Position numbers and translations under genes: made by a program. The notes below the pieces were generated by a model, which saw nothing but the letters and a program-made list of their open reading frames with translations, had not been told where the DNA came from and did not search any database. DNA of 64,000 bases from an uncultured delta proteobacterium (GTDB taxonomy: Bacteria; Desulfobacterota; RBG-13-43-22): contig CAVUPH010000014.1 in assembly GCA_963743305.1 (NCBI GenBank), positions 384,001 to 448,000 of the forward strand, in the 5' to 3' direction. How positions within the stretch are numbered: the stretch's first letter is position 1; every line of letters begins with the position of its first letter. Positions 42,662 to 60,358 of the stretch are shown piece after piece.

Positions 42662-43255
42662 ATGCTGAAAAAATATTGCGGATTGACTCTGCTGGTGATT
42701 CTGCCTCTCATCCTGGCCTACGGCTGCGGGGAAATGGGTAAAGTGGACCAAGGCCGGGTCATTGAATTCGATAAAGCCAAAGGGACGGTTACCCTGATCC
42801 AGGATATGAAAGCCGATCCTAAAAATCCGGATTACAGCCATCTGCCGCCCGTCACCTATGAAATTCCCAAGAACCCGGATGAGATGGGACCGGAACCCAA
42901 GGCCGGGTTGCGAATGAAACTGGATGCCAAGGCCAAACAGATCATTATCTTCGATCCGGTCTCCCAGAATTTCAAAACAATCGATTATACCCTGATCGAT
43001 CAGAAGGAAGGGGTGGATGCCGAAAATCCTTTGGTCATGGACAAGAAATTCCCGCTGGTGGAAAAGGAGAAGAAGGCCATTACCCTCTATTCCAAGAGAC
43101 AAAAGCTTCTGACTACCTTCAGCGTCCCGGATGAGTATTTCGCCCTTCCGGACAGCGCCTGGGATGCGGGCGACGAGGTGCGGATTTATTATAAGGAAAC
43201 CGGGAAGGCCCGACGGTTGATGAATATCAGCAAGACCAATATTTATAAAAAATAG
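42662..43255 (+). CDS. Lipoprotein (DUF4881-like)
   Basis: Lipobox LAYGC; VDQGRVI, GPEPKAG, GDEVRIYYK. Confidence 0.6.
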   Translation: MLKKYCGLTLLVILPLILAYGCGEMGKVDQGRVIEFDKAKGTVTLIQDMKADPKNPDYSHLPPVTYEIPKNPDEMGPEPKAGLRMKLDAKAKQIIIFDPVSQNFKTIDYTLIDQKEGVDAENPLVMDKKFPLVEKEKKAITLYSKRQKLLTTFSVPDEYFALPDSAWDAGDEVRIYYKETGKARRLMNISKTNIYKK

Positions 43256-43274
43256 CCGCCCCTGCTGGTGAAAC

Positions 43275-43328
43275 GCAAGAAGATCGCCGGGGGATCCGTG
43301 GGGCTCCCTGGCGATCCTCTTGCTTTTT
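43275..43328 (+). terminator. Rho-independent terminator
   Basis: gcaagaagatcgccgggg...ccctggcgatcctcttgc followed by TTTTT. Confidence 0.7.
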
Positions 43329-43390
43329 AGGGGGTTTATTGGTTTAATGATAATTCAAATTTCAACACCCAGGAACCGACCGGTCTGACG

Positions 43391-43600
43391 ATGAACATTC
43401 AACAAAAAATAGGAGTAGCCGTACTGGATGTGCTGATTTTAATCGAGTTGGGAATCAGTATGTATCGGGCCAACAAGACCCCCGATTTATTCACCCCGAT
43501 TTTTTTCAAGACCTTTTTTGTCCTGGTCATCCCCACCTTGATCGTGGCCGGGATAGTCATTAAAATGCTCCGGACCATTGAAGCCTCACCGAGCGCATGA
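43391..43600 (+). CDS. Small two-TM membrane protein
   Basis: 69 aa, two hydrophobic segments, ATGA overlap with the next gene. Confidence 0.6.
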   Translation: MNIQQKIGVAVLDVLILIELGISMYRANKTPDLFTPIFFKTFFVLVIPTLIVAGIVIKMLRTIEASPSA

Positions 43601-44385
43601 ACCTGGATCGGATTTCACGGTGGAGGAGATGGGCCGGCATTGCCGGCTCGATTTTTTGTCTCCTCAGCCTGTTGGCGGTCATAGACGCCCTGGTGGCGCG
43701 ATTTAAGCAGCCGCCCAGTTTATTTCAAGTGCTTCCGGGGACCGTCCTGGAGATCCAAGGGCCTCTGCGGGGGAAGGCAGACACCCCCGATAAACTGGCT
43801 TTTCAATGCGATTCCCGGGAAATCCGGATCCTTTTTGATGGAGTTCAGACCGGCTACTGGATGGGGGGGTATCTCTGGCGAGGGCGTCTGGTCATCGGCC
43901 CTGAAACCCGGCCAGGTCTCTATACACTTAAGATCCTCGGTCCTGGAATGGCCGCCAACCCGCCCTTCCCTCCTTTTCAGATCCGGGTATTCGGGGATGC
44001 GGATACGTATCGCCGGGCCCTGCCTTCTCTTGTTCAAAGATACTCCGGGGTGGTGCCCTGGGTGGCGGCGGTCTTCGCTTTTATCCCGGCCCTGGGATGC
44101 TTTGCCCTGGTTTTCTTTTTGTCCCAAAGGATAGAAGGCCTGCTGGCCGGGGAAGGCCGAGCGGAAATCTACCGGGTCCGTCAAACGAAGCGGGGTATCG
44201 AAATCTCCTTTGGCCTGGGCAGGGATCAGGGCTTGGAAGAAGGGACCCGGTTGAAACTGTTTGATGATAAAGGCCGGTCCCTGGGTACGGTAGAGGTCCG
44301 GAGCGTAACCGCCGGAGATGCCGTGGCCCTGGCCGTCGAGGAGCAGGGGGTACGCCCCGGCTATTGGTTGGCTAAAATCAGCTAG
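43597..44385 (+). CDS. Hypothetical membrane protein
   Basis: Two TM segments, GYWMGG.LWRG; translationally coupled. Confidence 0.65.
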   Translation: MNLDRISRWRRWAGIAGSIFCLLSLLAVIDALVARFKQPPSLFQVLPGTVLEIQGPLRGKADTPDKLAFQCDSREIRILFDGVQTGYWMGGYLWRGRLVIGPETRPGLYTLKILGPGMAANPPFPPFQIRVFGDADTYRRALPSLVQRYSGVVPWVAAVFAFIPALGCFALVFFLSQRIEGLLAGEGRAEIYRVRQTKRGIEISFGLGRDQGLEEGTRLKLFDDKGRSLGTVEVRSVTAGDAVALAVEEQGVRPGYWLAKIS

Positions 44386-44409
44386 TTGATCAACGGATGG
44401 AATAAGCGA

Positions 44410-46062
44410 ATGAAAGAGAAGGAATACCGCACCTTATGGTGGAAGATCGTATTTACCACCCTGGGTTTCTCTCTGATCCCCTTGTTCGGCCTGGGGTTTA
44501 CCATCTATTATCAGTTCAGCGTGTCGTACACCGCCAAGGTCATGGAGAACCTGAAAACCCTGGCGGAAAACCGCCGTAGTGCCATGGACCTTTTTTTTGA
44601 CGAGCGGATCTCCCAGTTGGTCACCATGGCCCATACCCACTCGCTCCAGCAACTGGCCGATGAAAATTACCTCAACAGAGTCTTTAATATCATGCAAACC
44701 CGATCCAAATCCTATATCGATATCGGGGTCATTGATCAGGAAGGTAACCATTTAGCCTATGTGGGTCCCTACCCTGAGCTTAAGGAAGTCAATTACAAAA
44801 AAGAAGACTGGTTTCAATCGGTCATGTCGGGCGGGATATACATCAGCGACGTTTTTTTAGGTTTTCGAAAATACCCTCATTTTATCATTGCCGTGATGAG
44901 TCGCGAAGGAAACCAGACTTGGATCCTGCGGGCGACCATTAACTCCGAAATCATCGACCAGGTTGTCCGGGCCGGCCAGATCGGGAAGAAGGGGGATGCC
45001 TTCATTGTCAATAAGCGGAATATCTTGCAGACCGCACCCCGCTTCAGCGGGGAAATTTTCGGCCACCCCAAAACCCCGGATTTTTCCCGGGTGATCGAGA
45101 ATCAAGTGGAAGAACAGTCCCTGGAAGGGGAAAGGGCCCTCTTTGCCGCCACGGTGATTAGTAATACCAAGTGGGTCCTGGTAATCAAGGAGGATCCTCA
45201 GGAACAGCTTACCCCGCTTTTGCGAGCCCGTTATTTGGCGGTTTTTCTTTTATTGGCCGGCGTTTTATTGATTGTCGGCGGGACGATTGTTACTTCCCGC
45301 TTGATGATGAAAAGGCTGATTCAAATCGACCGGGAAAAGGCGGTGAGTGAGGATTTGGTCATTCAGTCCAGTAAAATGGCGGCCCTGGGAAAAATGGCGG
45401 CCGGGATCGCCCACGAGATCAATAATCCCTTAGCCGTAATCGGCGAGAAAGCGGGCTGGATGAAAGACCTGCTGGCCGAAGAGGATATCTCGCGAAGTGA
45501 AAATTTCAAGGAGTTTGAAGATTCCATCCACAAGATTGAGTACCACGTGGAACGGGCTAAAAAAGTCACCCATCGCCTCTTAGGGTTTGCCCGAAGAATG
45601 GAACCGCTTCAGGAAACCGTGGATGTGAACAAAACTTTGGACGAAACCATCGATTTTCTGAAAAACGAGTCCCGGTATCGCAATATCGACCTTCAAACCG
45701 ACTTCTCCCCCGATTTGCCAAATATTACCAGTGATTCCTCTCAGTTACAACAAGTCTTTTTAAACATCCTGAACAATGCCATCGATGCCATCGGCAAGAA
45801 TGGGATGGTGATGATAAAAACCAGATTCCTCCCCAAAAATAGTGAACTTTCTGTTGAAATTACGGATAATGGCCCGGGAATCCCCAAGGAGATGGTAGCC
45901 AAAATTTTTGATCCTTTTTTTACGACCAAGGAAGTGGGCAAGGGAACGGGCCTGGGTCTATCCATTGTTTTCAGCATACTGGAAAAACTGGGGGGAAGAA
46001 TCATGGTGGCCAGCGAAGAGGGGAAAGGCACTACCTTTACGATTTATCTTCCGACCAAGTAA
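44410..46062 (+). CDS. Cache-domain sensor histidine kinase (NtrB-type core)
   Basis: [38 protein letters not shown]. Confidence 0.93.
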
Positions 46063-46085
46063 AGTGTTTCCGAGGGAGGTGACCC

Positions 46086-46487
46086 ATGGAAGAATTCAAG
46101 ATACTGGTGGTAGACGATGAAGACGATTTTCGGGAGACGATTGTCAAACGATTGCAAAAACGGAAGATGACGGCCCGGGGGGCGGAAAGCGGGGAAAAAG
46201 CGCTCGAATTCATTGAGGCCCAGCCTTTTGATGTGGTGGTTCTAGATGTCAAAATGCCCGGTCTGGACGGAATAGATACCCTGCGGGAGATTAAACAAAG
46301 AAGACCCCTGATCGAGGTGATTTTGCTCACCGGGCATGCCTCGATGGAATCGGGCATCGAGGGGATGAAATTAGGGGCCTTCGATTACGTGATGAAACCG
46401 GCCAACCTGGAGGAGCTGATTGAAAAAATGCGCCAGGCCTATGAAAAAAAAGTGGTCTCCGAAGCCCAGGAACTGGAAGGTCGCTAA
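46086..46487 (+). CDS. Single-domain response regulator
   Basis: ILVVDDE, LDVKMP, LTGH, DYVMKP; no output domain. Confidence 0.92.
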   Translation: MEEFKILVVDDEDDFRETIVKRLQKRKMTARGAESGEKALEFIEAQPFDVVVLDVKMPGLDGIDTLREIKQRRPLIEVILLTGHASMESGIEGMKLGAFDYVMKPANLEELIEKMRQAYEKKVVSEAQELEGR

Positions 46488-47444: not shown

Positions 47445-48845
47445 TCAGATTGTATCAAAACCATCCACTTTGGCAATATTTTTGATATCCATCCCGAATT
47501 CCCTGATCCGATTCCAGACCGTGACCCGCGAAACCCCCAAGATTCGGGCGGCCTCGGATTGATTGCCAGCGGATCGCTTCAAGGCTTCCCGCAGGGCTTT
47601 CTTTTTCATTTCTTTTCGATCGGAGGGAGCGTTTGGAGTCGAACTATTAAAACGTTTTCCCTGGAAAATTCCGAGAGGAAGGTGCTGGGGCTGAATCAGG
47701 GCTTCCTGACAAGTCACCAAGGCGTATTCAAAGGCGCTTTTTAATTCCCGTACATTCCCCGGCCATTCGTAGCTGATCAAGGCCTCCATGGTCTCCGGGC
47801 TGATCCCCTGGATCGGCTTGCCGGTTTTCAACTGGATTCGCTTAAAGAAAAATTCCGCCAGCAGGGGAATGTCTTCCACCCGGTCGCGCAACGGGGGTAA
47901 GACGATAGGGATGACGTTGATTCGGAAAAACAGATCCTCCCGAAAGCCCCCCGTGGCGACGAGTTGTTTCAGATTTTTGTTGGTGGCCGAAATAATCCGG
48001 ACATCCACCGGAACCGGCCGATTTTCGCCCACCCGCTCAATAACTTTTTCCTCCAGGACCCGAAGCAGTTTCACTTGAGTGGAAAGCGGCAGGTCCCCGA
48101 TCTCATCAAAAAAAATGTCCCCCCCGTGGGCCGCTTCAAAGCGTCCTTTGCGGCCCTCATACGCTCCGGTGTAGGCACCCCGTACGTGTCCAAAAAGTTC
48201 GCTCTCCAATAACGTTTCGGTTAAAGCGGCACTATTGACCTTGACAAACGGCTTTCGTTTTCGCGGACCGATTTCATGGAGGGCTTTGGCAGCCAGCTCT
48301 TTTCCGGTGCCACTCTCACCCAGGATAATCACCGGGGCATCGGAAGGGGCCGCATTCGTGATCAAATTCAGGGCCAGTTGCAAAGGAGCAGCGTGGCCCA
48401 ATATTCCATGAAAGCTATCTTCTTCCCGCAGTTCCCGCCGGAAGGCCTCTATCTGGCTGTCTTTTTCCACGATCTCGGTCAGGTCGGTCAGTGTTTCCAC
48501 GGCCCCGATAACCTGTTTTCCGTCATCATGTAGAAGGGAAGCATTTTTTAGGACCGGGACATTGTTCCCGTCCTTTCGCTGGATGGCGCAGCGGCGCCGA
48601 TTCAGGCTGCCAAATTCAAAAACCGAACAAAACATCCGTCCCTTTTTGTCTCGCGCTTCTTTGCAAATATTACACTTCAGGACCGAACAGGGCTGTCCCA
48701 AGATCCCCTCCCGGGAATAGCCGGTAATTTTTTCAAAGGCCTGATTTACCGAGACGATAAGACCCATTGGATCGACAATCATTACCCCATCCTGGATCGT
48801 GTCCACTACCGTCTTCCAGTAACGACTCAACTCCTGTTCAAGCAT
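47445..48845 (-). CDS. PAS-domain sigma-54 enhancer-binding protein
   Basis: PAS with CSVLKCNIC; GESGTGKE, ESELFGHVRGAYTGA, WPGNVREL; Fis-type HTH. Confidence 0.93.
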   Translation of the reverse strand: MLEQELSRYWKTVVDTIQDGVMIVDPMGLIVSVNQAFEKITGYSREGILGQPCSVLKCNICKEARDKKGRMFCSVFEFGSLNRRRCAIQRKDGNNVPVLKNASLLHDDGKQVIGAVETLTDLTEIVEKDSQIEAFRRELREEDSFHGILGHAAPLQLALNLITNAAPSDAPVIILGESGTGKELAAKALHEIGPRKRKPFVKVNSAALTETLLESELFGHVRGAYTGAYEGRKGRFEAAHGGDIFFDEIGDLPLSTQVKLLRVLEEKVIERVGENRPVPVDVRIISATNKNLKQLVATGGFREDLFFRINVIPIVLPPLRDRVEDIPLLAEFFFKRIQLKTGKPIQGISPETMEALISYEWPGNVRELKSAFEYALVTCQEALIQPQHLPLGIFQGKRFNSSTPNAPSDRKEMKKKALREALKRSAGNQSEAARILGVSRVTVWNRIREFGMDIKNIAKVDGFDTI

Positions 48846-48857
48846 GGCCCCCCTCCC

Positions 48858-48903
48858 GTTAAAATTTAACAGGGCATTAAATATTTAATTTAACATTTTA
48901 ACA
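48858..48903. promoter_or_regulatory. Candidate enhancer (UAS) palindromes between the EBP gene and the tusA operon
   Basis: gttaaaatttaac, attaaatatttaat, ttaacattttaaca; ~135-180 bp upstream of the sigma-54 promoter. Confidence 0.45.
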
Positions 48904-49035
48904 TCTTTAAGACTACAAAAATAACCCTTTCTCCCCTATTCTTCATTCTAAGCGTAGGGCCAATAAATATTTATATAATCAAATTCAAATGGTTAAGAAA
49001 GATATGGCTGAATCGAACAAACCCTGGGGGACAAT

Positions 49036-49051
49036 TGGCCAAGACCTTGCT
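49036..49051 (+). promoter_or_regulatory. Sigma-54 promoter of the tusA-hdr-dsrE operon
   Basis: TGGCCAAGACCTTGCT = GG-N10-GC, divergent from the EBP gene. Confidence 0.75.
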
Positions 49052-49135
49052 AATTAAATTATTGAAATCCCCATTTTTCCCTGTGGGGGAGGAACGTTGC
49101 CCAACAATTTCAGAACCTATTCAAGGAGGTAAAAA

Positions 49136-49390
49136 ATGGCTGACACAGATCTGAACAGCATTACCGTGGCCAATACCGTCGATGCCCGGGGAAGCGCGTG
49201 CCCCGGACCGCTTTTGGAAGCCAAAAAAGGGATCGGCAAGGTCAAGGTGGGAGAGATCCTGGAAGTCCTGTCCGGTGATCCCGGGACCCGGGATGACATC
49301 CCGGCCTGGGCCGATAAAGTCGGACATGAATACCTGGGTCTGCTGGAAGCGAGCGGCTATACCCGGCTTTTTGTGCGTCGGAAAAAATAA
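49136..49390 (+). CDS. tusA: TusA-family sulfur carrier
   Basis: VDARGSACPGPLL, GEILEV, D.G...DIPAW. Confidence 0.88.
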   Translation: MADTDLNSITVANTVDARGSACPGPLLEAKKGIGKVKVGEILEVLSGDPGTRDDIPAWADKVGHEYLGLLEASGYTRLFVRRKK

Positions 49391-49407
49391 TCAGGGGCGT
49401 CAGGACC

Positions 49408-49830
49408 GTGCCGGAACAGGAAGGGAAGATTCTCATCTTAGCTACGGAACACTGTGCCTACCCGGGGGCCAATTCCGTGGGACAGGCCCACAGCTCGTAC
49501 CCGGCCAACACCTATATCCTCCGGGTGCCGGCACCGGTGCTGTTTCCCGAATCGTTTTACTTGAATTGCTTCAAAAAAGGGATCAGCGGCTTGATCATTA
49601 TGACCTGCGGGACCGAATGCCCTTACGAGGGGGCTTACCCGGCCCTGGCCAAGCGGATCGATCGGGTGTACGCCCTGATGAAGGCGCAGGACCTGGACCT
49701 GCGCCGGCTCCGGCTGACGGCGATCTGCACGGTTTGCAATCGGGCGTTTCTGAAGGAGGTCGAGGAGATGAATGCCCTGGTCCAAGAATTAGGACCTCCG
49801 GTCTTCGGAAAGGCCTCTCCGAGTGAATGA
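49408..49830 (+). CDS. MvhD/FlpD-like iron-sulfur subunit with atypical Cys pattern
   Basis: CAYPGA..VG....YP.N..I.RVP, CGTECPY, RLRL; adjacent to hdrA. Confidence 0.78.
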   Translation: MPEQEGKILILATEHCAYPGANSVGQAHSSYPANTYILRVPAPVLFPESFYLNCFKKGISGLIIMTCGTECPYEGAYPALAKRIDRVYALMKAQDLDLRRLRLTAICTVCNRAFLKEVEEMNALVQELGPPVFGKASPSE

Positions 49831-49840
49831 GGAGGAAGCC

Positions 49841-51193
49841 ATGGAACCCAGTCAAACCCTGACGTTTGACGCCCTGGTGGTGGGAGGCGGTATCGCCGGC
49901 CTGCAGGCGGCGTTGGATCTGGCGGAGCAGGATTATCGCGTGGCGGTAGTGGAGAAAGACACCACCATCGGCGGAAAGATGATCCGGCTTTCCAAGGTTT
50001 TTCCGACGCTCGATTGCGCCAGTTGCATTACCACCCCCAAGATGGCCGCGGCGGCCCATCATGAGCGGATTACGCTGTTCACCTATTGTGAACTGAACAA
50101 TCTGGATCGGACTCCGGAAGGTTTGACGGCAACCATCACCCAGAAACCCCGTTATGTGGACGCCCGTAAGTGCATCGGCTGTCGGCAATGCGAGTATACT
50201 TGTCCGGTTTATGTGCGGGATGAAGAACAGGGTGGATTCTCCGCCAGGAAAGCCATCTATATCCCTTTCTCCAACGCCATCCCTCAGACGGCCCTGCTGG
50301 ATGTAGAAAATTGTTTGTTGTGCGGTAAATGCGAAAAGATCTGTCCGACTCAGGCCGTGGATTTTTTTCAGGAACCCCGGGTTTTTCGGGTGGAGGCTAA
50401 AACGGCTGTTCTGGCCACCGGCTTCGAACCGATCCCGCTCGCCGACAAGGTCCAGTACGGCAACGGGGAGATCCCCAATGTCATTACCGCGCTGCAGATG
50501 GAGCGGCTCCTGGCCCCCCATGGGCCCTATGCCCGGGTCCTGCGTCCCTCGGACGGTATGGAGCCGGATTCGATCGCCTTTATTCAATGCGTCGGCTCCC
50601 GGGACCAGAGTCTGGGGGTTCCCTATTGTTCCCGGGTCTGTTGCATGTACGCCATCAAGCAGGCCATGCTCCTTTCCGGCGCCCTGCCTCTGGCGGACAT
50701 AATTATTTATTACATTGATATCCGGGCCTTTGGAAAAGGCTACGAACAGTTTTTCCAAAATGCTCAGGCCATGGGGATCCAGTTTGTCAAAGCCAAAGTG
50801 GCCACCCTGAGCGAAGGCGAAAGCGGACGGGTCACGGTCCGCTACGAAGCCCAGGATGGAGAAGGGGTGACCACGGCGGATCATGATCTGGTGGTGCTCT
50901 CCCTGGGGATGCTCCCGGGATGGAACCCCGAGGGTCTCTGTGCCGTGTCTCGGGATTCAGACGGTTTTATAAAAACCATTCAACCCAAAATCGCCCCGAC
51001 CTTGACGGACCTGGAGGGCGTTCTGGTGACCGGCGCGGCAGCCGGTCCTAAGGACATCGTGGATACGATCGCGGAGTCCGGCGCCGCGGCTATGGAGGCC
51101 GCGAAGTACCTGACGGTCCGAGCATCTTCCCCCCCAGGTCCTGACCGATTGAAAACCGGCCGGATAAATCCAGTGGATCGGGAGATCGGATAA
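49841..51193 (+). CDS. hdrA: HdrA-like FAD/Fe-S protein (short form)
   Basis: VGGGIAG, KVFPTLDCASC, two CxxCxxCxxxCP motifs, QCVGSR, YCSRVCCMY. Confidence 0.85.
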   Translation: MEPSQTLTFDALVVGGGIAGLQAALDLAEQDYRVAVVEKDTTIGGKMIRLSKVFPTLDCASCITTPKMAAAAHHERITLFTYCELNNLDRTPEGLTATITQKPRYVDARKCIGCRQCEYTCPVYVRDEEQGGFSARKAIYIPFSNAIPQTALLDVENCLLCGKCEKICPTQAVDFFQEPRVFRVEAKTAVLATGFEPIPLADKVQYGNGEIPNVITALQMERLLAPHGPYARVLRPSDGMEPDSIAFIQCVGSRDQSLGVPYCSRVCCMYAIKQAMLLSGALPLADIIIYYIDIRAFGKGYEQFFQNAQAMGIQFVKAKVATLSEGESGRVTVRYEAQDGEGVTTADHDLVVLSLGMLPGWNPEGLCAVSRDSDGFIKTIQPKIAPTLTDLEGVLVTGAAAGPKDIVDTIAESGAAAMEAAKYLTVRASSPPGPDRLKTGRINPVDREIG

Positions 51194-53115
51194 TGGCGGA
51201 AGAAACGAAAGAGCGCAACAACTCAGGGGAGAAGATCGGGGTTTACCTCTGTCATTGTGGAGGAAACATCTCCGATCAGGTAGCGGTGGAAAAGGTCCGG
51301 GAGCGGGCCGAGAAGATCCCCGGTGTGGCCGTGGTCCGCACCAACCCTTTCATGTGTTCGGATCCCGGCCAGGAACTGATTGCCGAAGACCTTAAAACGG
51401 GAACCGTCGAGCGGGTGGTGGTGGCCTCCTGCGCTCCCAGTCTTCATGAGACTACTTTTCGCGACGTCATGGTCCGGGCGGGCGCTAATCCCTATCTCTA
51501 TGAACACGCCAACATCCGGGAGCAAGTGAGCTGGGTCCACCACGGTGACGCGGCCACGGACAAAGCGACCCGGCTGGTGGCGGCCGCGGTGGGAAAGGCT
51601 AAATACCTAAAACCTCTGAAACCCTTGCGGGTCGAGGCCAGAAGGCATGCCACCGTGATCGGCGGAGGACTGGCGGGGCTTCGGGCGGCTAAAGACCTGG
51701 CCGTCAGGGGATTTAAGGTGGCCTTGGTGGAACGCTCTCCTTTTTTGGGGGGGCGGTCGGCCTTATTGGACCGCATTGCCCCCACGGGAGAACCGGCCGC
51801 CGATCTGGTCTCCAACCTGGCCCGGGAGGTCCTGAGCGATCCGGCCGTCAGCCCGTATACCTGTTCCCAGGTAATCGGTTTCGAAGGGACTATCGGGAAT
51901 TTCAACCTTCGGATCAGATCCGCGCCTCCGGACTCGGAAGCGGACCACGAAAAGATCCGACGACTGCCGGCCTCCGGTGTCGGATCGAGAGAATTTGTCC
52001 CTCTGGCGGGAATGTTTCCGGGCGGCATTCCTGAGCGGACCGAAGATCGAACGATCGAAACCGGGGTGATCATCCTGGCCACGGGTTTTAAACCGTACAC
52101 GCCCCGCCAGGGAGAGTACGGGCAGGGGGTATTCCCGGAGAGCCTGACCCTTCCCCAGTTTATCTTGGAGAGAGCCCGCCAAAAAACCAACGGGAAGGTT
52201 CTGGAGTTGGGCGGACGACCGATTCGAAGCCTGGCCATGATTCACTGCGTGGGCAGCCGGCAGATCCCCGGCATTCATGAGGCGGATGAGGGCGGGGTCC
52301 TTAACGAATATTGCTCCCGCACCTGTTGCACCGCCACCATTCAGGCGGCGCTTCAGGTTCGACAAAACTATCCGGGGACGCGCGTCTATGAATTCTATCG
52401 GGATATTCGCACCTATGGCCGGGGCCAGGAGGAGCTCTATCGGCAAGCCTCCAACAGCGGAGTAGTCTTCCTGCGCTTCCAGGCGGAAGAACCCCCCCAA
52501 GTGTCCCGACCGATCGACGATAACGGGTTTCCTCTTCGGATCACAGTCAAGGACACCCTGACTTTTGGAGAGGAGGTGGAAGTTCCGGTGGACCTGGTGG
52601 TGCTCGCGGTGGGCATGGAGCCGAATCCCGTGCCCGACCTGGTGGAGATGATGAAGCTTCCGGTAGGCGTCGACCGGTTTCTGTTGGAGGTTCATCCCAA
52701 GCTGCGACCGGTGGAGATTTCCGTATCCGGGATTCTGCTGGCCGGAACCTGCCAGGCCCCCATGGATATCGGCGAAGCCTGTGCCGGCGCCGGGGCGGCA
52801 GCGGTCAAAGCCTCGGGCATCCTTTCCCGGGGCTACGTGGAGTTGGATCCCTTCGTAGCCGAAGTGGATATTCAGAAGTGCCGGGGAACAGGGGCTTGTG
52901 TGGAAGCCTGTCTGAATCCGGGGGCGCTGACGATGGTGGAGACCGAAGTCGAGGGGCGGCAGATCCGGCAAGCCCGGGTGAATCCGGCCCTCTGCCGGGG
53001 TTGCGGCGCCTGTGTGGCGGTTTGTCCGGAAAACGCCATCCAGGTCAACGGGTGGACGCTGCGGCAATACGAGGAAATGGTGGATATGATCCTGGCCGAT
53101 GAATTGATTTGCTGA
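51193..53115 (+). CDS. hdrA: HdrA-like FAD/Fe-S protein (long form)
   Basis: IGVYLCHCGGNI, MCS, ASC, NIREQ, IGGGLAG, HCVGSR, YCSRTCC, C-terminal ferredoxin. Confidence 0.85.
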   Translation: MAEETKERNNSGEKIGVYLCHCGGNISDQVAVEKVRERAEKIPGVAVVRTNPFMCSDPGQELIAEDLKTGTVERVVVASCAPSLHETTFRDVMVRAGANPYLYEHANIREQVSWVHHGDAATDKATRLVAAAVGKAKYLKPLKPLRVEARRHATVIGGGLAGLRAAKDLAVRGFKVALVERSPFLGGRSALLDRIAPTGEPAADLVSNLAREVLSDPAVSPYTCSQVIGFEGTIGNFNLRIRSAPPDSEADHEKIRRLPASGVGSREFVPLAGMFPGGIPERTEDRTIETGVIILATGFKPYTPRQGEYGQGVFPESLTLPQFILERARQKTNGKVLELGGRPIRSLAMIHCVGSRQIPGIHEADEGGVLNEYCSRTCCTATIQAALQVRQNYPGTRVYEFYRDIRTYGRGQEELYRQASNSGVVFLRFQAEEPPQVSRPIDDNGFPLRITVKDTLTFGEEVEVPVDLVVLAVGMEPNPVPDLVEMMKLPVGVDRFLLEVHPKLRPVEISVSGILLAGTCQAPMDIGEACAGAGAAAVKASGILSRGYVELDPFVAEVDIQKCRGTGACVEACLNPGALTMVETEVEGRQIRQARVNPALCRGCGACVAVCPENAIQVNGWTLRQYEEMVDMILADELIC

Positions 53116-53137
53116 TAAGGAGAAGGAAAAGGTTCCA

Positions 53138-53473
53138 ATGACAGCAGCCGAAACGGATAAAGAAGCACGGAATAAACTCCGATTGGCCCGAAAAGGGGTG
53201 ATCGCGGGGGTTGCGGTCCGGGTCAAGGAGCAGCAGCAGGCCGTCAAGGCCCTGAAGCAGTCCCTGCAGGCGGGCGGCAAAACGGTGCCGGAACTGGCTC
53301 AGGATACCGGTCTGCCGCCTTCTGAAATCCTGTGGTATCTGGCGGCCTTGAAAAAGTATGGTGAAATCGCCGAAGGGGCCAAAGCGGGGAGCTATTTTCG
53401 CTACATGCTGGCAACCGTCCTTCCCGGTGAAAAGGCGGTGGACCAGGAGATTTCAGAAGGGGCCGCGAAATGA
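53138..53473 (+). CDS. Winged-helix domain protein
   Basis: KTVPELAQDTGLPPSEILWYLAALKKYG. Confidence 0.65.
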   Translation: MTAAETDKEARNKLRLARKGVIAGVAVRVKEQQQAVKALKQSLQAGGKTVPELAQDTGLPPSEILWYLAALKKYGEIAEGAKAGSYFRYMLATVLPGEKAVDQEISEGAAK

Positions 53474-53772
53474 TCACGGTTAACCCCTCGTTTGCGGAAG
53501 AGTTGGCCCGTTTTGGCGTGGATAGCGCCCTGGATTGTTTTCACTGCGGGACCTGCGCCGCCATCTGCCCGTTGATCTATGAGCATTTTCCTCGAAAGAT
53601 GATTCGTTATATCCAGTTGGGCGCCAGGGAAAGGATTCTGGAAGACCCGAACGATCTGTGGCGTTGCCTGCACTGCGGACTTTGCACCCAAACCTGCCCG
53701 CGGAAAGCCGATCCTGGAGAGCTGATTCTGGGCTTGAAGCGTTTTGTTGTGGACCACTGGAGGAATCATTAA
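53470..53772 (+). CDS. HdrC-like 2x[4Fe-4S] protein
   Basis: CFHCGTCAAICP, WRCLHCGLCTQTCPR. Confidence 0.85.
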   Translation: MITVNPSFAEELARFGVDSALDCFHCGTCAAICPLIYEHFPRKMIRYIQLGARERILEDPNDLWRCLHCGLCTQTCPRKADPGELILGLKRFVVDHWRNH

Positions 53773-53773
53773 C

Positions 53774-54706
53774 ATGTACCGACCCCAGGATATCATCGAG
53801 GTCTTGGCCGGTAATGTACGCCGGACCGGGAGCCCCTTCGGCATCCCGAAATTCTTGGTGAACAATTGGTGGAAAGAACTGGGGCTCCGGCAGCAGGGTG
53901 AGTCCCTGCTGTTTACGGGATTGATGTATCAGTTCGTCCCCTACATCGAGAAGGCCACCAGCATTCTGGAAAAATTTGAAGATCGCCCACTGGCCGAATG
54001 GGTGCGGTTTGGGCGGTATCAGCCCAAACGATTGGCCGGTCTGGGGCTGGCCATGATTACTCCCGGTGCAGCCAAGAAAAGAGCCCAGGTCACTCTCCGG
54101 AATATCACCCGAATCCTCACCCAATCCGGAGTGGACTTTTTTTATCAACCGCAACTGGACGAATACAGCGGGATCCTGCTTTACGATTTGGGTGATCAGG
54201 AGAGCTTTGTGACGCACGCCCGGTATGTGGCCGGCCGACTAAAAAAAGCGGGAGTACGGAAGATCATTACCGTGGACCCCCACACGACCTATGCCTTGAA
54301 GGTTCTCTATCCCCAATACGTCGAGGAGCAATTTGAAGTGAGGACTTATTTTGAACTGGCCAACGTATCATCTCAGAATGGCCGAGGCCAGGTCACCCTC
54401 CATGATCCCTGTTTTTACGGGCGATATCTGGAATTGTCCGCTGCGCCGCGAAAGGCCCTGGAAAGGGTAGGCATCGAATGCCTGGAAGTCCGGAACTCCG
54501 GCGCCTTCACCCAATGCTGCGGCGGGCCGGCGGAGTCCATCTCCCCCCTTCTGGCCCGGGAGATTATGGGGCGCAGGGTGGAAGAGTTGAAATCCACCGG
54601 CGCCCCTTTGGTGGCCATGTGCCCCATCTGCCTGGGCAACCTGAGAAAGTCCGGGGCGGAGGTAGAGGACCTGTCGACTATCCTGGCCCGCGGGTTACCG
54701 GCTTGA
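53774..54706 (+). CDS. CCG-domain (HdrB/HdrD-like) Fe-S protein
   Basis: C-terminal HDPC, QCCGG, MCPIC; N-terminal CCG domain lacks Cys. Confidence 0.8.
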   Translation: MYRPQDIIEVLAGNVRRTGSPFGIPKFLVNNWWKELGLRQQGESLLFTGLMYQFVPYIEKATSILEKFEDRPLAEWVRFGRYQPKRLAGLGLAMITPGAAKKRAQVTLRNITRILTQSGVDFFYQPQLDEYSGILLYDLGDQESFVTHARYVAGRLKKAGVRKIITVDPHTTYALKVLYPQYVEEQFEVRTYFELANVSSQNGRGQVTLHDPCFYGRYLELSAAPRKALERVGIECLEVRNSGAFTQCCGGPAESISPLLAREIMGRRVEELKSTGAPLVAMCPICLGNLRKSGAEVEDLSTILARGLPA

Positions 54707-54789
54707 AACCCGGCAAATTTTGGATCGGCTAACGTCTTTGAACGTAACGTAAATATAACCCATTTCCAAGCAAAGAAAGGAGCAGTATC

Positions 54790-55164
54790 ATGGCGGAAAA
54801 AGAAGAAAAGATCCTGGTGATCGGCACCCATGCCTCAGACAATCCGGAGAAGGCGGCCATGCCCTTTGTCATGGCCAACGCGGCCCTGGCCATGGATGTC
54901 AAGGCCATGGTGGTGTTGCAGGGAGAAGGCGTTTATCTGGCCAAGAAGGGGTATATTGAAAACCTGGTCAAGCCGGGAGGCTTCAGCCCTTTCACCAAAC
55001 TGATGGCCGACTTCCTGGAACTGGGGGGGGCCCTCAGAGTTTGCGTGCCCTGCATCAAGGAGAGGAACATTGAAGAGTCCGATCTGATCCCAGGGGCTCA
55101 GACCACGGCCGCCGGCCGCCTGATTACCGAAGCGCTCCTGGCGGACGCCGTTTTCACCTATTAA
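54790..55164 (+). CDS. DsrE-family sulfur relay protein
   Basis: PFVMANAALAM, LQGEGV, VCVPCIKER. Confidence 0.85.
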   Translation: MAEKEEKILVIGTHASDNPEKAAMPFVMANAALAMDVKAMVVLQGEGVYLAKKGYIENLVKPGGFSPFTKLMADFLELGGALRVCVPCIKERNIEESDLIPGAQTTAAGRLITEALLADAVFTY

Positions 55165-55225
55165 AACCTTTTGTCGAAATCCGGTTGGGTCCGGGTAGAT
55201 CTGGGCGAAATGCGGAAAATAATGG

Positions 55226-55262
55226 CCAAGGGGGGGCAAAGCCCCCCTTGGTCTTTATTATT
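55226..55262 (+). terminator. Hairpin after dsrE, probable terminator
   Basis: ccaaggggggg-c-aaa-gccccccttgg followed by T-rich sequence. Confidence 0.55.
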
Positions 55263-55471: not shown

Positions 55472-55994
55472 ATGGAACTTCAAGGGAAGAAGGTCATTAT
55501 CTTTCGCCGAAGAGATGTATAACGAATTTGAACTCTGGTACCCGTATTATCGGTTGCTGGAAGCCGGGGCGGCGGTGACCCTGGTCGGATCCGGGAGCGC
55601 CCAGGTTTATAAGAGCAAATTAGGACTCCCGGTCAGGGTCCAGGCGAGCGCCGACCAGGTTGATCCGAAAAATTTCAACGGGCTGATCATCCCGGGCGGG
55701 TATGCCCCGGATCATATGCGACGCTACCCGGCCATGGTCCGCCTGGTGAAGGAGATCTTTGACGCCGGGAAGGTGGTGGCGGCCATCTGCCACGCCGGCT
55801 GGATGCTGGCTTCCGCCGAGGTGGTCCGAGGGAAAAAGGTGACCTCCTTTTTTGCCATCAAAGACGACTTGATTCATGCCGGGGCGGAATGGGTCGATCA
55901 GGAGGTCGTGGTGGACGGCAATCTGATCACCAGCCGGAAACCGGACGACCTGCCGGCCTTCATGCGGGCCGTGATTACAGCCCTTAAGGGTTAA
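55472..55994 (+). CDS. PfpI/DJ-1 family protein; frameshift near 55502
   Basis: RBS AAGGAGG and MELQGKKVII in an offset frame; E.ELWYP, IPGG, AICHAGW, SRKPDDL. Confidence 0.88.
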
Positions 55995-56298
55995 TACGAA
56001 AATAAAAACGATCACGCGTTCGGGAAGTTGTTTTTGCCGTCATGCCGGACCCGATCCGGCATCCAGGGTATTCGAAGCTCAAAGGGCTCTAGACATACGA
56101 CTATTTCCTGGACTCACTATTGATCGAAATCTCCATTTTTTGGATAGAACAGCAGCCTGGGGGGGGGGTGGTTTACGAGTCGGCGTGAGAACTCGAAGCC
56201 AAATCAAGGCCGAAAATATGACCCTGGATGGCCTGGCCATTCGATATGGGCAGTTATAGAGAAGGTGCCGGGAGATGAACGATCCTCCCGGTCTGAGG

Positions 56299-57042
56299 TT
56301 ATTTTAACAGGTTTCCCCGAACGCCGATCACTCTTTCCGCCAGGGGGATATTCTTTCCGGCCTTTTCCATGGCCTGCTTGACGATCCAGGGCAGGCCGGC
56401 GCAGCAGGGGACCTCCATGACCACGGTGGTCACGCTGTTGATCTGGGCCGTGTTAAAAATATCCGTAAACTTCTGAATATATTCCTGGACATCGTCAAAC
56501 TTGGGGCAGCCCATCATGACCACCTTGCCCTGGAGAAAATCTCGGTGAAAGTCGGGATAAGCCAAGGGGGTGCAGTCGGCGACTACCAGGAGGTTGGCGT
56601 TTTTAAGGAAGGGCGCCGTCGGGGGCACCAGTTTGATCTGCACCGGCCAATGGCTGAGGGCCGATCCCTGGACGGTTTGGGTCTTCGGCTGGTTGGCTTC
56701 CTGACAGGAGGAGACCGGGGCAAAGGTCTGCAGCGTGGTGGAGGGGCAGCCGCAGGGCAGTTTGGTTTCAGGCTGCGGAGCGGCCGGGGGTCTTATGGCC
56801 TTCAAATGCTCCTCGACGGCCTGTTCGTCGAAATCCTCGGACTCCCGTTCGATGATGTGCAAGGCGTCGTTGGGGCATTCGCCCAGGCAGGCCCCCAGGC
56901 CGTCGCAATATTTTTCGGCGGTCAGGGTAGCCTTGCCGTCTATGATCTGGATGGCGCCTTCGGCGCAGGAGGGAACGCACAGACCGCAGCCGTCGCAACG
57001 TTCGGGATCGATTTCAATGATTTTTCGTTTAATTATCATCAT
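56299..57042 (-). CDS. Hcp-associated 4Fe-4S ferredoxin-domain protein
   Basis: CDGCGLCVPSC, CDGLGACLGECP, CGCP, HWPVQI, ADC, GCPK, MEVPCC. Confidence 0.85.
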   Translation of the reverse strand: MMIIKRKIIEIDPERCDGCGLCVPSCAEGAIQIIDGKATLTAEKYCDGLGACLGECPNDALHIIERESEDFDEQAVEEHLKAIRPPAAPQPETKLPCGCPSTTLQTFAPVSSCQEANQPKTQTVQGSALSHWPVQIKLVPPTAPFLKNANLLVVADCTPLAYPDFHRDFLQGKVVMMGCPKFDDVQEYIQKFTDIFNTAQINSVTTVVMEVPCCAGLPWIVKQAMEKAGKNIPLAERVIGVRGNLLK

Positions 57043-57143
57043 TTTTTCCTTTGGATAAGAAAGGTTCACCCACCCCCCAACGTTCGGCTGAGCCACGTCG
57101 AAGCCCCCCTCCTCAAGGGAGGGGGAGTAGGAAGCGTTTGAAG

Positions 57144-57887
57144 TTAGGAGTTCTGCGGGGTTTTTAAAAACACCTTAATGGCCAGTTCCCGGCCGCTGTC
57201 GGTTAAAAAAGATCGATCAATGATCGCGGCCAGCCGTTCCGGGGATGATGCCTTTTCTTTCTGATTTTCCTCCAGGTTGACGATCAGGTCCGCGTCGTAG
57301 ATCGCTTTGAAATTGATGGTTTCCTTTTCCCGGGGATGATGGTGATGGCCGACTATATCGCAGACCTCCTCGATCAGTTCTTCCCGGGCGCCCAGTTTGG
57401 TCAGGATCTGCCGGGCAATGGGCGGTCCTTCTTCCTCCTGGTAGCGGGCGGCCGTGCTCTGGTATTTCCGTTCCGCCTCATGGATGCCGATGTCGTGCAG
57501 ATAGGCGGCCGAGAGGATCACCGCCGGATTCCCCTTTTCCTTTCTGGCCAGCTCCTCGGCATAGCGGGCCACCCGGGTGGCATGGCCGATCCGTTTGAAA
57601 TCGGTAGTGAAGTAGCGCTTCATTTCAATGGCCACCCGGTCCTTCAGGAGATCCTCTTTTTGGGCGATTAGTTCCGGGGGCAGCCCCCCCAGGCACTGCT
57701 CCGCATGAGGGCAGTAAGAGGCGCAACCGAAATCCATTTGGGGGTTGATGATCCGCTTCCCGCATTTCTTGCAGAGTCGGGTCGTATCATCTTTAAAGAA
57801 TTCGAGCTCGGCACCGCAATGGGGGCATTGGGTCTCGAAGATCGACCCGGGTTTCCAGTAACGGCTGTCCTGTCCTGGGCATTTCAT
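57144..57887 (-). CDS. HD-domain phosphohydrolase with N-terminal Zn-ribbon
   Basis: MKCPGQD, CPHC, CKKC, CASYC; IGH...LHDIG...HHH...DAD. Confidence 0.82.
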   Translation of the reverse strand: MKCPGQDSRYWKPGSIFETQCPHCGAELEFFKDDTTRLCKKCGKRIINPQMDFGCASYCPHAEQCLGGLPPELIAQKEDLLKDRVAIEMKRYFTTDFKRIGHATRVARYAEELARKEKGNPAVILSAAYLHDIGIHEAERKYQSTAARYQEEEGPPIARQILTKLGAREELIEEVCDIVGHHHHPREKETINFKAIYDADLIVNLEENQKEKASSPERLAAIIDRSFLTDSGRELAIKVFLKTPQNS

Positions 57888-57937
57888 AAAAAATCCTTTT
57901 ATCCTTGAATTCGGGTTGATCCGTGATCGGGGTCCAT

Positions 57938-57965
57938 TAGGGGCGGGTTTTGAACCCGCCCCTAC
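57938..57965. repeat. GTAG-type REP-like palindrome
   Basis: taggggcgggttttgaacccgcccctac. Confidence 0.6.
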
Positions 57966-57992
57966 GACAACCATTTATGAAAACAGGATTTT

Positions 57993-59621
57993 TTATCCCA
58001 ATATCGCCTTGAGATCCTCGTCCGGGGTGGTGATGGGCATGACGTTGAACGTCTTTACCAACACATCCAGGACGTTGGGGGTGATGAAGGCCGGCAGGGA
58101 GGGCCCCAGCCGAATGTTCTTGATCCCCAGGTAAAACAAGGTCAACAAAATGGCTACGGCCTTCTGCTCATACCAGGAAAGGATCATGGACAAGGGCAGG
58201 TCATTGACCCCCACATTAAAGGCCTTGGACAAGGCCACAGCGATCTGGATGGCCGAATAGGCATCGTTGCACTGCCCCACGTCCAGGAGGCGCGGGATCC
58301 CGCCGATGTCGCCCAGGTCTTTGTCGAAGAATCGGAACTTGCCGCAGGCCAGGGTCAGGACCACCGTATCTTTCGGTGCTTTTTCAACGAATTCGGTATA
58401 GTAATTACGTCCGGGTTTGGCCCCGTCGCAGCCGGCCACCAGAAAGAAGTGGCGGATGGCCTTGTTTTTTACGGCCTCGATGACCGCTCCGGCCACACCC
58501 ATGACGGTGTTGCGGCCGAACCCGACCGTGACCGTTTTCCCGTTGCTGTCTTCCGCAAAACCGGGTAAGGCCAACGCCTTTTCAATCACCGGAGCGAAGT
58601 TTTTATCGGCGATATGAGTGACCCCCGGGAAGCCCACCAAGCCGGTGGTGAAAATATTTCCCTGGTAGGATTCCTTGGGCTTCTGGATACAGTTGGTGGT
58701 CATCAGGATGGCCCCGGGAAATTCGCCGAACTCCTTGTGCTGATTCTGCCAGGCCGTGCCGTAATGGCCGTAGAAATGGGCATATTTTTTCAATGCGGGA
58801 TAGCCGTGGGTGGGCAGCATCTCGCCGTGGGTATAAACGTTGATCCCTTTGCCTTCGGTCTGTTTCAGGATCAGTTCCAGGTCTTTCAGGTCATGGCCGG
58901 AAACCAGGATGGCCTTGCCCTTTTTATGCCCTAGGGGAACCTTGGTCGGTACGGGATGTCCGTAGGTTTCCGTATTGGCGGCATCCAGGATTTCCATGGC
59001 TTTTAAATTGGCCTCCCCGCATTTCAAGGTCAGGCCCACCCAGTCGTTCAGGGTCAGGTCTTTGTTCAGGGCGGCGGCCAATCCTTCATGGATAAAGGCA
59101 TAGACGGACTCGTCTTCCTTGCCCAAGATCTGGGCATGGTCAGCGTAAGCGGCGACCCCCTTAATCCCGAAAGTGACGGTCCAAATCAGCGCATGAATGT
59201 CTCTATCCGTAGTGGTGTCTGATTGAATTCCAACCTTCTCTCCTTGGGCGATCATTCCCTCCAGGGTATCGGCCAGGATTAAATTCGCCGGTCCCTTCGG
59301 GAAATCCACTTTTCCGCCGGCCGCTTTTACCTTGGCTTTCAATTTTTCCCGCAGGGCCACGGTCTCTTTCAGTAGAGGAGCGAACCGATCGGCGTCAAAA
59401 TCCACATTGGTCAAGGTCGAAAACAAGGCCTTGACGGTAAAAATATTGGCCTCCGGGTCGCTGATGCCCACCTTGCGGCCTTCCACGGCCACCTGGGACA
59501 ATCCCCGCATGGCATACACCACCAGATCCTGCAGAGCGGCTACTTCGGGTTGCTTCCCGCAGACCCCGACTTTGGTACAGCCTTCCCCTTTGGCGGTTTG
59601 TTCACATTGATAACAAAACAT
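57993..59621 (-). CDS. hcp: Hybrid cluster protein (hydroxylamine/NO reductase)
   Basis: MFCYQCEQT...C...CGK, SGHD, YTHGEMLP, TTNC, GCDG, LACG, GQCND, WYEQKA. Confidence 0.97.
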   Translation of the reverse strand: MFCYQCEQTAKGEGCTKVGVCGKQPEVAALQDLVVYAMRGLSQVAVEGRKVGISDPEANIFTVKALFSTLTNVDFDADRFAPLLKETVALREKLKAKVKAAGGKVDFPKGPANLILADTLEGMIAQGEKVGIQSDTTTDRDIHALIWTVTFGIKGVAAYADHAQILGKEDESVYAFIHEGLAAALNKDLTLNDWVGLTLKCGEANLKAMEILDAANTETYGHPVPTKVPLGHKKGKAILVSGHDLKDLELILKQTEGKGINVYTHGEMLPTHGYPALKKYAHFYGHYGTAWQNQHKEFGEFPGAILMTTNCIQKPKESYQGNIFTTGLVGFPGVTHIADKNFAPVIEKALALPGFAEDSNGKTVTVGFGRNTVMGVAGAVIEAVKNKAIRHFFLVAGCDGAKPGRNYYTEFVEKAPKDTVVLTLACGKFRFFDKDLGDIGGIPRLLDVGQCNDAYSAIQIAVALSKAFNVGVNDLPLSMILSWYEQKAVAILLTLFYLGIKNIRLGPSLPAFITPNVLDVLVKTFNVMPITTPDEDLKAILG

Positions 59622-59740: not shown

Positions 59741-59962
59741 CAATCGACTTTTATTAGACAAGAAAGAATGGAAACGATATCGATGGTTAATAATTATTAT
59801 TATTTGAAATAAATTAATACATTTGCCAGTGGGCGCAAGTAAGGCCGGAAAATTTTTTTTATTATCCTAATTTTTTTCTTGATTTCTCTTGAAATAAACA
59901 TATAAATGATTATTTATATACTTGTTGCTTCAATGGCTGATTTCAAGAATCAGGAATTTATA

Positions 59963-60343: not shown

Positions 60344-60358
60344 TCAGGAGAACACCCG

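Follow-up and report, generated by a model that had tools for sequence, protein, structure and literature searches.

A conserved sigma-54 operon of Desulfobacterota in which sulfur carriers frame a split, methanogen-type HdrA pair

For most of the many HdrA-like proteins found in sulfate-reducing bacteria, neither partners nor substrates are known, and the way in which they handle zero-valent sulfur in the cytoplasm, whether for reduction, disproportionation, thiosulfate cleavage or polysulfide tolerance, is an open question. We describe here an operon of eight genes, tusA-mvhD-hdrA-hdrA-orf111-hdrC-CCG-dsrE, found in a stretch of 64,000 nucleotides from the genome of an uncultured delta proteobacterium (contig CAVUPH010000014.1; the whole stretch is called the window below), which appears to combine a complete core of the bifurcation type with a pair of sulfur carriers and a sensor, all dedicated to it. 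Among the systems to which it can be compared, the MetFV-HdrABC-MvhD complex of acetogens (cited in PMC10553843) uses Hdr modules without a hydrogenase, and DsrK of DsrMK(JOP) is a reductase of the DsrC trisulfide with one CCG domain. The nearest published counterpart is a group that Neukirchen et al. 2023 call ‘type II Qmo’, still uncharacterised and described there as a qmoAB-like pair that is closer to hdrA than to canonical qmoAB and occurs with or without Apr and Dsr (PMC10504309). Compared by description, the operon fits this account and may belong to the group. In sHdr-LbpA systems, according to PMC11094781, an Hdr-like complex is linked, as here, to TusA and a transferase of the DsrE3 type, and a one-cluster form of HdrB, sHdrB3, exists in the type II sHdr systems; PMC6067878 places a small gene between hdrA and hdrC-hdrB, again as here. 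The operon is nonetheless distinct from canonical Qmo, methanogen Hdr and sHdr, and no description of it was found in full-text searches of the main texts of papers. Its features are as follows.

47445-48845, minus strand: activator gene, 466 amino acids; Pfam PAS_9 (1e-16), Sigma54_activat (1.4e-65), AAA_lid_14 and HTH_8
48855-48874, no strand: palindrome of the GTTAAA-TTTAAC type from an inverted-repeat search; candidate activator site, binding putative
49036-49051, plus strand: sigma-54 promoter TGGCCAAGACCTTGCT; -24 GG at 49037-38, -12 GC at 49049-50
49136-49390, plus strand: tusA, 84 amino acids; Pfam TusA 1.6e-20; Cys22 in CPGP
49408-49830, plus strand: mvhD-like gene (MvhD'), 140 amino acids; Pfam FlpD 2.2e-17
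49823-51193, plus strand: short hdrA, 456 amino acids from GTG; orthologs of about 435 amino acids
51193-53115, plus strand: long hdrA, 640 amino acids
53138-53473, plus strand: orf111; Cys-less; no Pfam match at E<=0.001
53470-53772, plus strand: hdrC-like gene (HdrC'), 100 amino acids; eight Cys; Fer4 families
53774-54706, plus strand: CCG protein gene (HdrB*), 310 amino acids from ATG; one Pfam CCG domain, 1.3e-10
54790-55164, plus strand: dsrE-like gene, 124 amino acids; Pfam DsrE 5.9e-16; Cys85 and Cys88 in VCxPC
55224-55253, plus strand: terminator-like hairpin; 12-bp stem with 9 G-C pairs, T-rich tail

An earlier note on this DNA, made from the letters alone, had already pointed to eight tightly spaced genes with tusA first and dsrE last, to a clear -24/-12 site in front of them and to a divergent sigma-54 activator with a Cys-rich PAS domain, and each of these is where it had been placed. 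The intergenic distances from tusA to dsrE are, in order, 17, -8, -1, 22, -4, 1 and 83 nucleotides, orf111 and hdrC overlapping by 4. The promoter TGGCCAAGACCTTGCT matches 9 of the 11 specified consensus positions with the canonical GG-N10-GC spacing and lies 85 nucleotides 5' of the tusA start, and the hairpin, which starts 60 nucleotides past the dsrE stop, closes the operon. Because the genes overlap or nearly touch and share one promoter and one terminator, these features indicate that all eight are probably read as one transcript. The parts expected of a sigma-54 unit are all present, namely the AAA+ interaction domain in the activator, the -24/-12 promoter and an rpoN gene in the host genome.

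In a scan of one genome per species, 295 stretches with relatives of the long HdrA were found, and the best 80 of the 295 were fetched as loci; gene presence was counted only in loci with enough flanking DNA on the relevant side. Gene order is nearly unchanged across these best 80. TusA and MvhD are each present in 64 of 64 loci, orf111 in 62 of 62, HdrC in 61 of 62 and the CCG protein in 57 of 62, while DsrE is found in 58 of 62 at an identity of at least 35% and in 61 of 62 at one of at least 25%. The bracketing by sulfur carriers, a central claim of the earlier note, for which it had proposed a synteny survey, is therefore a fixed trait of these loci. A sigma-54 site with at least 9 of 11 positions occurs in 62 of 66 upstream regions, compared with 187 of 6600 shuffled regions, and the cluster-binding cysteines of the operon proteins are invariant or nearly so in 56-74 orthologs. 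We conclude that the eight-gene unit is a real, well-bounded and strongly conserved operon.

All 80 loci are of Desulfobacterota type except one short contig binned as Gammaproteobacteria, and their hosts include Desulfosarcina variabilis, strain NaphS2, Desulfatiglandales, Ca. Desulfatibia, Desulfarculaceae and Syntrophobacterales. As D. variabilis and NaphS2 are cultured strains, the operon is directly testable. Within an even sample of the phylum, 15 of 401 genomes, from 11 of 254 genera, encode an ortholog of the CCG protein, and the operon is present in 7 of 14 genomes of one sister genus. The marker dsrA was found in 14 of the 15 genomes with HdrB* and in 203 of the 401 overall, which, given that related genomes are not independent, is to be taken as a tendency and not as a test. 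The fifteenth is the present host, a metagenome-assembled genome (MAG) of 4.9 Mb that is 90% complete, in which dsrA was not found. Because both genus mates searched have dsrA, as do three genomes of a sister genus, we read the host lineage as sulfate-reducing and the missing dsrA as an assembly gap. A homolog search that started from the short HdrA gave at least 120 close orthologs, whose names are generic, and no named Qmo reference among those listed. Contigs from two metatranscriptome runs of one study are 90-97% alike to window positions 49319-50137 and span the tusA-mvhD and mvhD-hdrA junctions together with parts of both hdrA genes and of hdrB*; they come from relatives, with DNA carry-over possible, and we do not count them as proof of expression. 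A search of sequencing runs returned no run that contains half of the stretch.

The activator is encoded in 54 of 57 loci, divergent and upstream in 52 of the 54. Its PAS domain has five cysteines, C53, C58, C61, C73 and C86, each of which is conserved in 55-56 of 56 orthologs. Searched alone against NCBIfam, this domain matched generic PAS families only and no named sensor; its C58-x2-C61-x11-C73 spacing presumably resembles that of the iron-sulfur-binding PAS domain of NreB. We suggest that the five-Cys activator would switch the operon on upon a redox or sulfur signal. TTTAAC repeats continue from the palindrome at 48855-48874 up to about 48905, near the activator start, and a GTTAA-N3-TTAAC or TTAAC-N4-GTTAA dyad lies in 17-18 of 52 promoter-upstream regions of orthologous loci.

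The core of the operon is the HdrA pair. Judged by their domains, the short and the long protein are complementary halves of a methanogen-type HdrA. The short one consists of a flavin adenine dinucleotide (FAD) domain with an inserted 2x[4Fe-4S] ferredoxin domain and a CxxC motif, lacks the N-terminal domain and the C-terminal ferredoxin domain, and covers positions 136-561 of the 777-position HdrA2 profile (2.1e-137); the long one has the N-terminal 4-Cys domain, the FAD domain and the C-terminal ferredoxin domain and matches profile positions 1-233 and 324-651 (3.5e-143), skipping the inserted ferredoxin domain, which is absent. Both keep the FAD-domain cluster Cys set. Fifteen cysteines of the short protein are kept in 70 of 70 orthologs, and the cluster cysteines of the two proteins in 65-74 of 70-74. 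Together, the pair would hold one copy of all that a methanogen HdrA homodimer has twice, and could thus form a single-track electron-bifurcation core. MvhD' keeps six cysteines in 68 of 68 orthologs; set against the four MvhD paralogs of the host, it retains three canonical cysteines, lacks two and gains C54 and C107-x2-C110.

Two comparisons that the earlier note had proposed, with QmoAB and with sHdrA, set these HdrA proteins apart from both. The closest solved relative of either is the HdrA of methanogen HdrABC-MvhAGD (5odc, 8rvu, 7bkb): the short protein scores 1e-108 to 4e-114 against methanogen HdrA chains and only 5.5e-36 against sHdrA 6tjr, the long one 6.9e-115 against 5odc_A and only 1.1e-27 against 6tjr. 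In an HdrA tree of 46 rows (a quick IQ-TREE search with two long-branch rows flagged), the short proteins linked to tusA group in one clade and the long ones in another, each with a support of 100 in the Shimodaira-Hasegawa-like approximate likelihood ratio test (SH-aLRT), while apr-linked QmoA (3 genomes) and QmoB (5 genomes), the apr-linked Qmo rows being taken from the host genome and four named genomes, fall together in one separate clade (100). The short HdrA has the first module of the host's double-HdrA fusion paralogs as its sister group (96), and the one canonical full-length HdrA paralog of the host falls outside both tusA-linked clades. The note had named beforehand what would speak against its reading, namely proteins inside characterised Flx-Hdr or Qmo clades together with an unconserved tusA/dsrE linkage. 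With respect to Qmo, the opposite was found: the HdrA clades lie outside apr-linked Qmo and the linkage is conserved. Its picture of a cytoplasmic module agrees with the lack of any membrane-type hydrophobic segment in the eight products. The hydrogenase, formate dehydrogenase and flx genes that it had reported as missing from the operon were likewise not detected in Pfam and NCBIfam domain scans of the eight products, which sets the operon apart from FlxABCD-HdrABC in gene content, and no donor hydrogenase or formate dehydrogenase was found among the recurrent neighbour genes of the orthologous loci.

With methanogen HdrABC-MvhAGD the operon shares its whole set of modules (the FAD domain, the N-terminal, inserted and C-terminal cluster domains, MvhD, HdrC and HdrB). 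Unlike the methanogen complex, it spreads the HdrA domains over polypeptides of 456 and 640 amino acids, has one cluster site instead of two in HdrB* and no C-terminal extension on HdrC', lacks a hydrogenase, and belongs to a bacterium, a host not known to have coenzyme M or coenzyme B. Like QmoABC and QmoAB-HdrCB, it has neighbouring genes for two unequal HdrA-like flavoproteins, together with an MvhD module and an HdrC-like ferredoxin, and, as in those systems, the end module is in some loci a membrane protein of the QmoC type and in others a soluble pair of HdrC and HdrB. However, it is not the apr-linked Qmo system: apart from the placement of its HdrA proteins outside the QmoA/QmoB clade, its MvhD is encoded by a gene of its own and has a changed Cys pattern, tusA and dsrE frame it under sigma-54 control, and it does not lie beside aprBA. 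The host aprA is on another contig, in the order aprB-aprA-qmoA-qmoB-hdrC-hdrB (C40:39045-46769 in our contig numbering, L099:2045-9769 as a fetched locus), so that the host has a separate aprBA-qmoAB-hdrCB. The operon also lacks the QmoC membrane cytochrome b subunit of QmoABC, and no QmoC was found above the cut-off in the host genome; a QmoC-free, soluble Qmo form is reported for Gram-positive and some deltaproteobacterial sulfate reducers.

HdrC' is a 2x[4Fe-4S] ferredoxin whose eight cysteines, as expected for the two clusters of methanogen HdrC, are kept in 72 of 72 orthologs; its best NCBIfam match is the N-terminal part of QmoC (2.1e-21). HdrB* has a sole Cys set for a noncubane cluster, C213, C248, C249, C283 and C286, and no Cys in the first lobe. 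By sequence, its relation to HdrB is only partly visible, as Pfam saw one CCG domain, residues 228-306 alone aligned with canonical HdrB, and a comparison of the first with the second half (E 0.12) gave no degenerate first CCG domain. An AlphaFold2 (AF2) model with a mean predicted local distance difference test score (pLDDT) of 86.5, however, superposes with residues 42-310 on residues 1-270 of HdrB 5odc_B (VIA-align, Z 17.3, root-mean-square deviation 2.5 A, 218 aligned), and also matches the C-terminal part of mycobacterial EtfD 9ojn (Z 25.5) and LutA (Z 19.6). In 111 aligned sequences (110 representatives and the window protein), the five cluster cysteines are kept in 93-99%, and first-lobe Cys occur only at the positions of L50 (28%) and S132 (15%). 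It is this fold match together with the residual family Cys at L50 and S132 that settles the question of the two lobes: HdrB* has, as modelled, the whole two-lobed HdrB fold. The family comprises 147 clusters at E<=1e-30, reaches several archaeal phyla and bears generic names only among the ten looked up; it includes HdrC-HdrB* fusions of 380-433 amino acids, some of them in Thermoplasmata and Nitrososphaeria MAGs. The label Hdr-like used in the earlier note can be kept for the methanogen-type modules and the HdrB fold, with the reservation that the ‘CCG’ protein has only one cluster site. One such site can suffice, as DsrK has a single noncubane-cluster site acting on protein-bound sulfur; unlike HdrB*, DsrK is membrane-associated, quinol-linked and without an HdrA partner, and its substrate DsrC is not encoded in the operon.

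Both carriers keep the cysteines on which sulfur transfer would depend, Cys22 of TusA in 66 of 66 sequences and C85 and C88 of DsrE in 61 of 61. The best solved relative of the operon DsrE is 3mc3 (1.9e-8), with Cys85 aligned to its Cys, and since 3mc3 is called DsrE3A in PMC11094781, the operon DsrE is a predicted DsrE3-type protein. According to the same paper, DsrE3 proteins of sHdr systems bind polysulfide sulfur and pass it to TusA.

The eighth product, orf111, had been described in the earlier note as a winged-helix gene, and its AF2 model (pLDDT 86) agrees, with a helix at H3-43 followed by a winged helix, in other words a predicted ArsR/SmtB-type domain with a long N-terminal helix. 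The top Foldseek rows are ArsR-family repressors (SqrR at 1.3e-3, NolR, HlyU and SmtB; TM 0.45-0.5), and HTH_24 is found below threshold in 27 of 42 members. SqrR, which leads the list, is a sulfide sensor; orf111 itself has zero cysteines, and the fold matches lie at E about 1e-3. A complex prediction for orf111 with HdrC' and HdrB* gave 0.00 against a mark of 0.32, which is no answer, neither for nor against binding. The protein may be a regulator or a subunit. It had also been considered as the missing HdrC extension, which was rejected, as hhalign against the C-terminal part of a full-length host HdrC gave no match (E 0.19).

Most loci hold extra genes that are missing here. A second tusA-like gene stands between promoter and tusA in 30 of 62 loci (for example L091:3470-3763, in D. 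variabilis, and L064:3489-3848), with the Cys motif in 11 of the 30 and Cys-less in 19, D. variabilis among them; because of this gene, the promoter of those loci lies 330-410 nucleotides upstream of tusA. After dsrE, 38 of 59 loci, one genus mate included, encode orf234, a soluble protein of about 234 amino acids and of no Pfam family with the conserved Cys motifs KCYARGC..NLCPH and RCLAC (for example L091:10042-10743 and L013:10209-10862); it was searched for in the window and the host genome and is absent from both.

What might such an operon do? The genes and domains, the cofactor-binding cysteines, the HdrB* fold, the conservation, the promoter and the distinct phylogeny are matters of observation; from them, and largely by analogy, we infer that a complex forms, what its substrate is, in which direction its electrons flow and what signal would induce it. 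We tentatively propose, at somewhat less than an even chance, a soluble flavin-iron-sulfur complex of the Hdr/Qmo type that reduces sulfane sulfur carried by DsrE and TusA at a single noncubane cluster. The earlier note had inferred, in the same vein, a persulfide or polysulfide oxidoreductase acting on sulfur bound to these carriers, which would be its probable role at best. MvhD', the short and long HdrA, HdrC' and HdrB* would make up this complex and, with the two sulfur carriers, a set of seven redox proteins. Cys85 of the DsrE3-like protein would take up sulfane sulfur, as polysulfide or persulfide and possibly as thiosulfonate, and hand it to Cys22 of TusA, a loading order that we propose because DsrE3 proteins of sHdr systems do so (PMC11094781). 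TusA would then offer the sulfur to HdrB*, whose one noncubane [4Fe-4S] site would reduce it to sulfide, a step proposed because of the analogy with one-site CCG enzymes. Electrons would reach HdrB* from the HdrA flavin through HdrC', with HdrC'-HdrB* as the high-potential end; the HdrA pair would supply the flavin site and a ferredoxin port, MvhD' would be a second port, and in this way the ferredoxin domains and MvhD' could couple sulfur reduction to ferredoxin and to a donor encoded elsewhere. If carrier-bound sulfur is indeed reduced, the complex would correspond, in bacteria, to heterodisulfide reductase, a protein persulfide taking the place of the ‘heterodisulfide’, and part of the ‘type II Qmo’ group would be given a function.

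Several findings weigh against carrier reduction at HdrB*. The most important is that HdrB* is missing and HdrC diverged in four of 62 loci (L034, L061, L081 and L088), and probably also in L008-L010. Of these variant loci only L061 was examined in detail; there, between orf111 and dsrE, hdrC and the HdrB* gene give way at 8246-9418 to a gene for a 390-aa QmoC-like protein, which has an HdrC-like part at its head and a membrane body of several helices. The soluble operon with hdrC-CCG that the earlier note described is what is present here, while some loci swap in a membrane protein. As L061 keeps tusA, dsrE and orf111, the carriers do not strictly need the CCG site, and two kinds of end module are possible, a soluble one with a CCG site and one of the quinone type, as in apr-linked Qmo. 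The QmoC-type variant is the main weakness of the proposal. In addition, the operon encodes no donor enzyme, and in 9 of 49 loci metV (DUF5981) and metF (MTHFR) follow directly after orf234 on the same strand (L091:10786-12438 in D. variabilis), a pair that is absent from the window. Finally, and only if the hdrA1-mvhD1-oxidoreductase cluster of Desulfococcus multivorans is the same operon, it counts that HdrA1 was detected there with butanol, propanol and butanoate, and not with a sulfur treatment (PMC5109826).

The variant loci would also suit an explanation that we regard as unlikely, in which the HdrA pair and MvhD' act as a wire between a high-potential port and an unlinked sulfur enzyme or carrier reaction, much as QmoAB does for AprAB, so that TusA and DsrE would serve the unlinked partner and not HdrB*. 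In some loci QmoC would make menaquinone the port; in the present operon it would be a thiol/disulfide couple at HdrB*, for instance DsrC. The interchange of HdrC-HdrB* with a QmoC-like protein between loci is what one would expect of such a wire, the same swap is known for apr-linked Qmo, the host itself having aprBA-qmoAB-hdrCB, and the best NCBIfam match of HdrC' to QmoC points the same way. However, no candidate partner enzyme is linked to the operon in the 80 loci, whose recurrent extras are only the tusA-like gene, orf234 and sometimes metVF; the proteins fall outside the apr-linked Qmo clade, and the cluster site of HdrB* is strictly conserved.

A role in stress defence or repair, outside energy metabolism, seems to us quite unlikely. 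Here the activator would sense oxidants or reactive sulfur species, and the complex would clear persulfides or disulfides from cytoplasmic proteins or supply sulfur for cofactor repair. Dedicated, inducible sigma-54 control through a PAS domain with five invariant cysteines would suit such a role, as would the presumably NreB-like Cys spacing of that domain, the patchy, accessory distribution (15 of 401 genomes; 7 of 14 in one sister genus) and, in the window, the neighbouring DJ-1/PfpI gene, hybrid cluster protein and rhodanese/DsbD-type island. But outside the genus these genes do not accompany the operon, a machine with seven clusters and two flavins would be costly for repair, and the strict association with genomes that have dsrA speaks for dissimilatory sulfur metabolism.

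It would also be tempting to take the complex as a sulfur-driven flavin-based electron bifurcase, although we hold this to be rather improbable. The sulfide/sulfane couple held by TusA and DsrE would be the mid-potential two-electron partner, and its electrons would be split between ferredoxin and a high-potential acceptor, which may be menaquinone where the locus is of the QmoC type and, where it is of the soluble type, a thiol or trisulfide at HdrB*. With potentials of about -270 mV for the sulfide/sulfane couple, about -450 mV for ferredoxin and about -75 mV for menaquinone, the mean of the last two matches the sulfur couple. If it were true, sulfate reducers and disproportionators could make reduced ferredoxin from sulfide, and in reverse ferredoxin and quinol could drive the reduction of sulfur or thiosulfonate in the cytoplasm.

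An oxidative, sHdr-like direction, in which carrier-bound sulfane would be oxidised, or sulfide oxidised to carrier-bound sulfane, with electrons passing to ferredoxin and a high-potential acceptor, we consider very unlikely. In its favour, TusA and DsrE3 with an Hdr-like complex are an sHdr signature and the HdrC-HdrB* fusions fit, by description only, sHdrB3 as a one-cluster fusion (both from PMC11094781), and the order hdrA, small gene, hdrC, hdrB mirrors the hdrA-hyp-hdrC2-hdrB2 of sHdr loci (PMC6067878). Against it, the operon has no lipoate-binding protein LbpA, no lipoate ligase and a single HdrC/HdrB pair instead of two; its HdrA proteins are of the large methanogen type (about 1e-115), far from the 350-aa sHdrA (1e-27 to 5e-36 for 6tjr), and its hosts are anaerobic sulfate reducers. 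Least probable is that the operon is the electron-bifurcating partner of methylene-tetrahydrofolate reductase, as in the acetogen MetFV-HdrABC-MvhD, with which it shares HdrA, HdrB, HdrC and MvhD without a hydrogenase and, in those nine of 49 loci including D. variabilis, an adjacent metVF, for metVF is missing in the other 40 and in the window, none of the four host pairs (three beside other HdrA paralogs) is at the operon, the HdrA is split, HdrB* has one cluster, and TusA and DsrE would have no role in methylene-tetrahydrofolate reduction.

The four metV-metF pairs of the host genome lie at C10:47570-57573, C26:87756-94332, C8:50123-55227 and C10:121919-123507. Three of them adjoin HdrA paralogs other than those of the tusA-dsrE operon, and some of these metVF-adjacent paralogs are fusions of short-type and long-type HdrA modules of 900-1500 amino acids.

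As for the surroundings of the operon, the region past the terminator (55515-59621) holds a DJ-1/PfpI gene on the plus strand and, on the minus strand, genes for a ferredoxin-domain protein, an HD-domain protein and a hybrid cluster protein (Prismane, 3.2e-172); this neighbourhood is common only to genus members. A sulfur-related island follows at 59906-63109 (plus strand), 4.7 kb downstream of the operon. It encodes a TsoR-type ArsR regulator (NF045707, 4.4e-46), a TsoB-like rhodanese/DsbD selenoprotein with two in-frame TGA codons in a YUAGLTU motif and with a frame change near 61.7 kb, past the TGA codons, and, 7.4 kb downstream of the operon, a GcvH-related protein (NF045810, 1.6e-75). On the other side, upstream of the activator's neighbour (41570-46487, plus strand), are genes for a TauE/SafE-family exporter, a DUF4881 protein, a 262-aa protein of no known family, a dCache histidine kinase and a single-domain response regulator. 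Farther away, at 14615-19136 (plus strand), the gene for an 875-aa protein in which URO-D-like, pterin-binding and B12-binding domains are fused precedes that for the corrinoid activation protein RACo, which is split into two frames (17282-17746 and 17838-19136).

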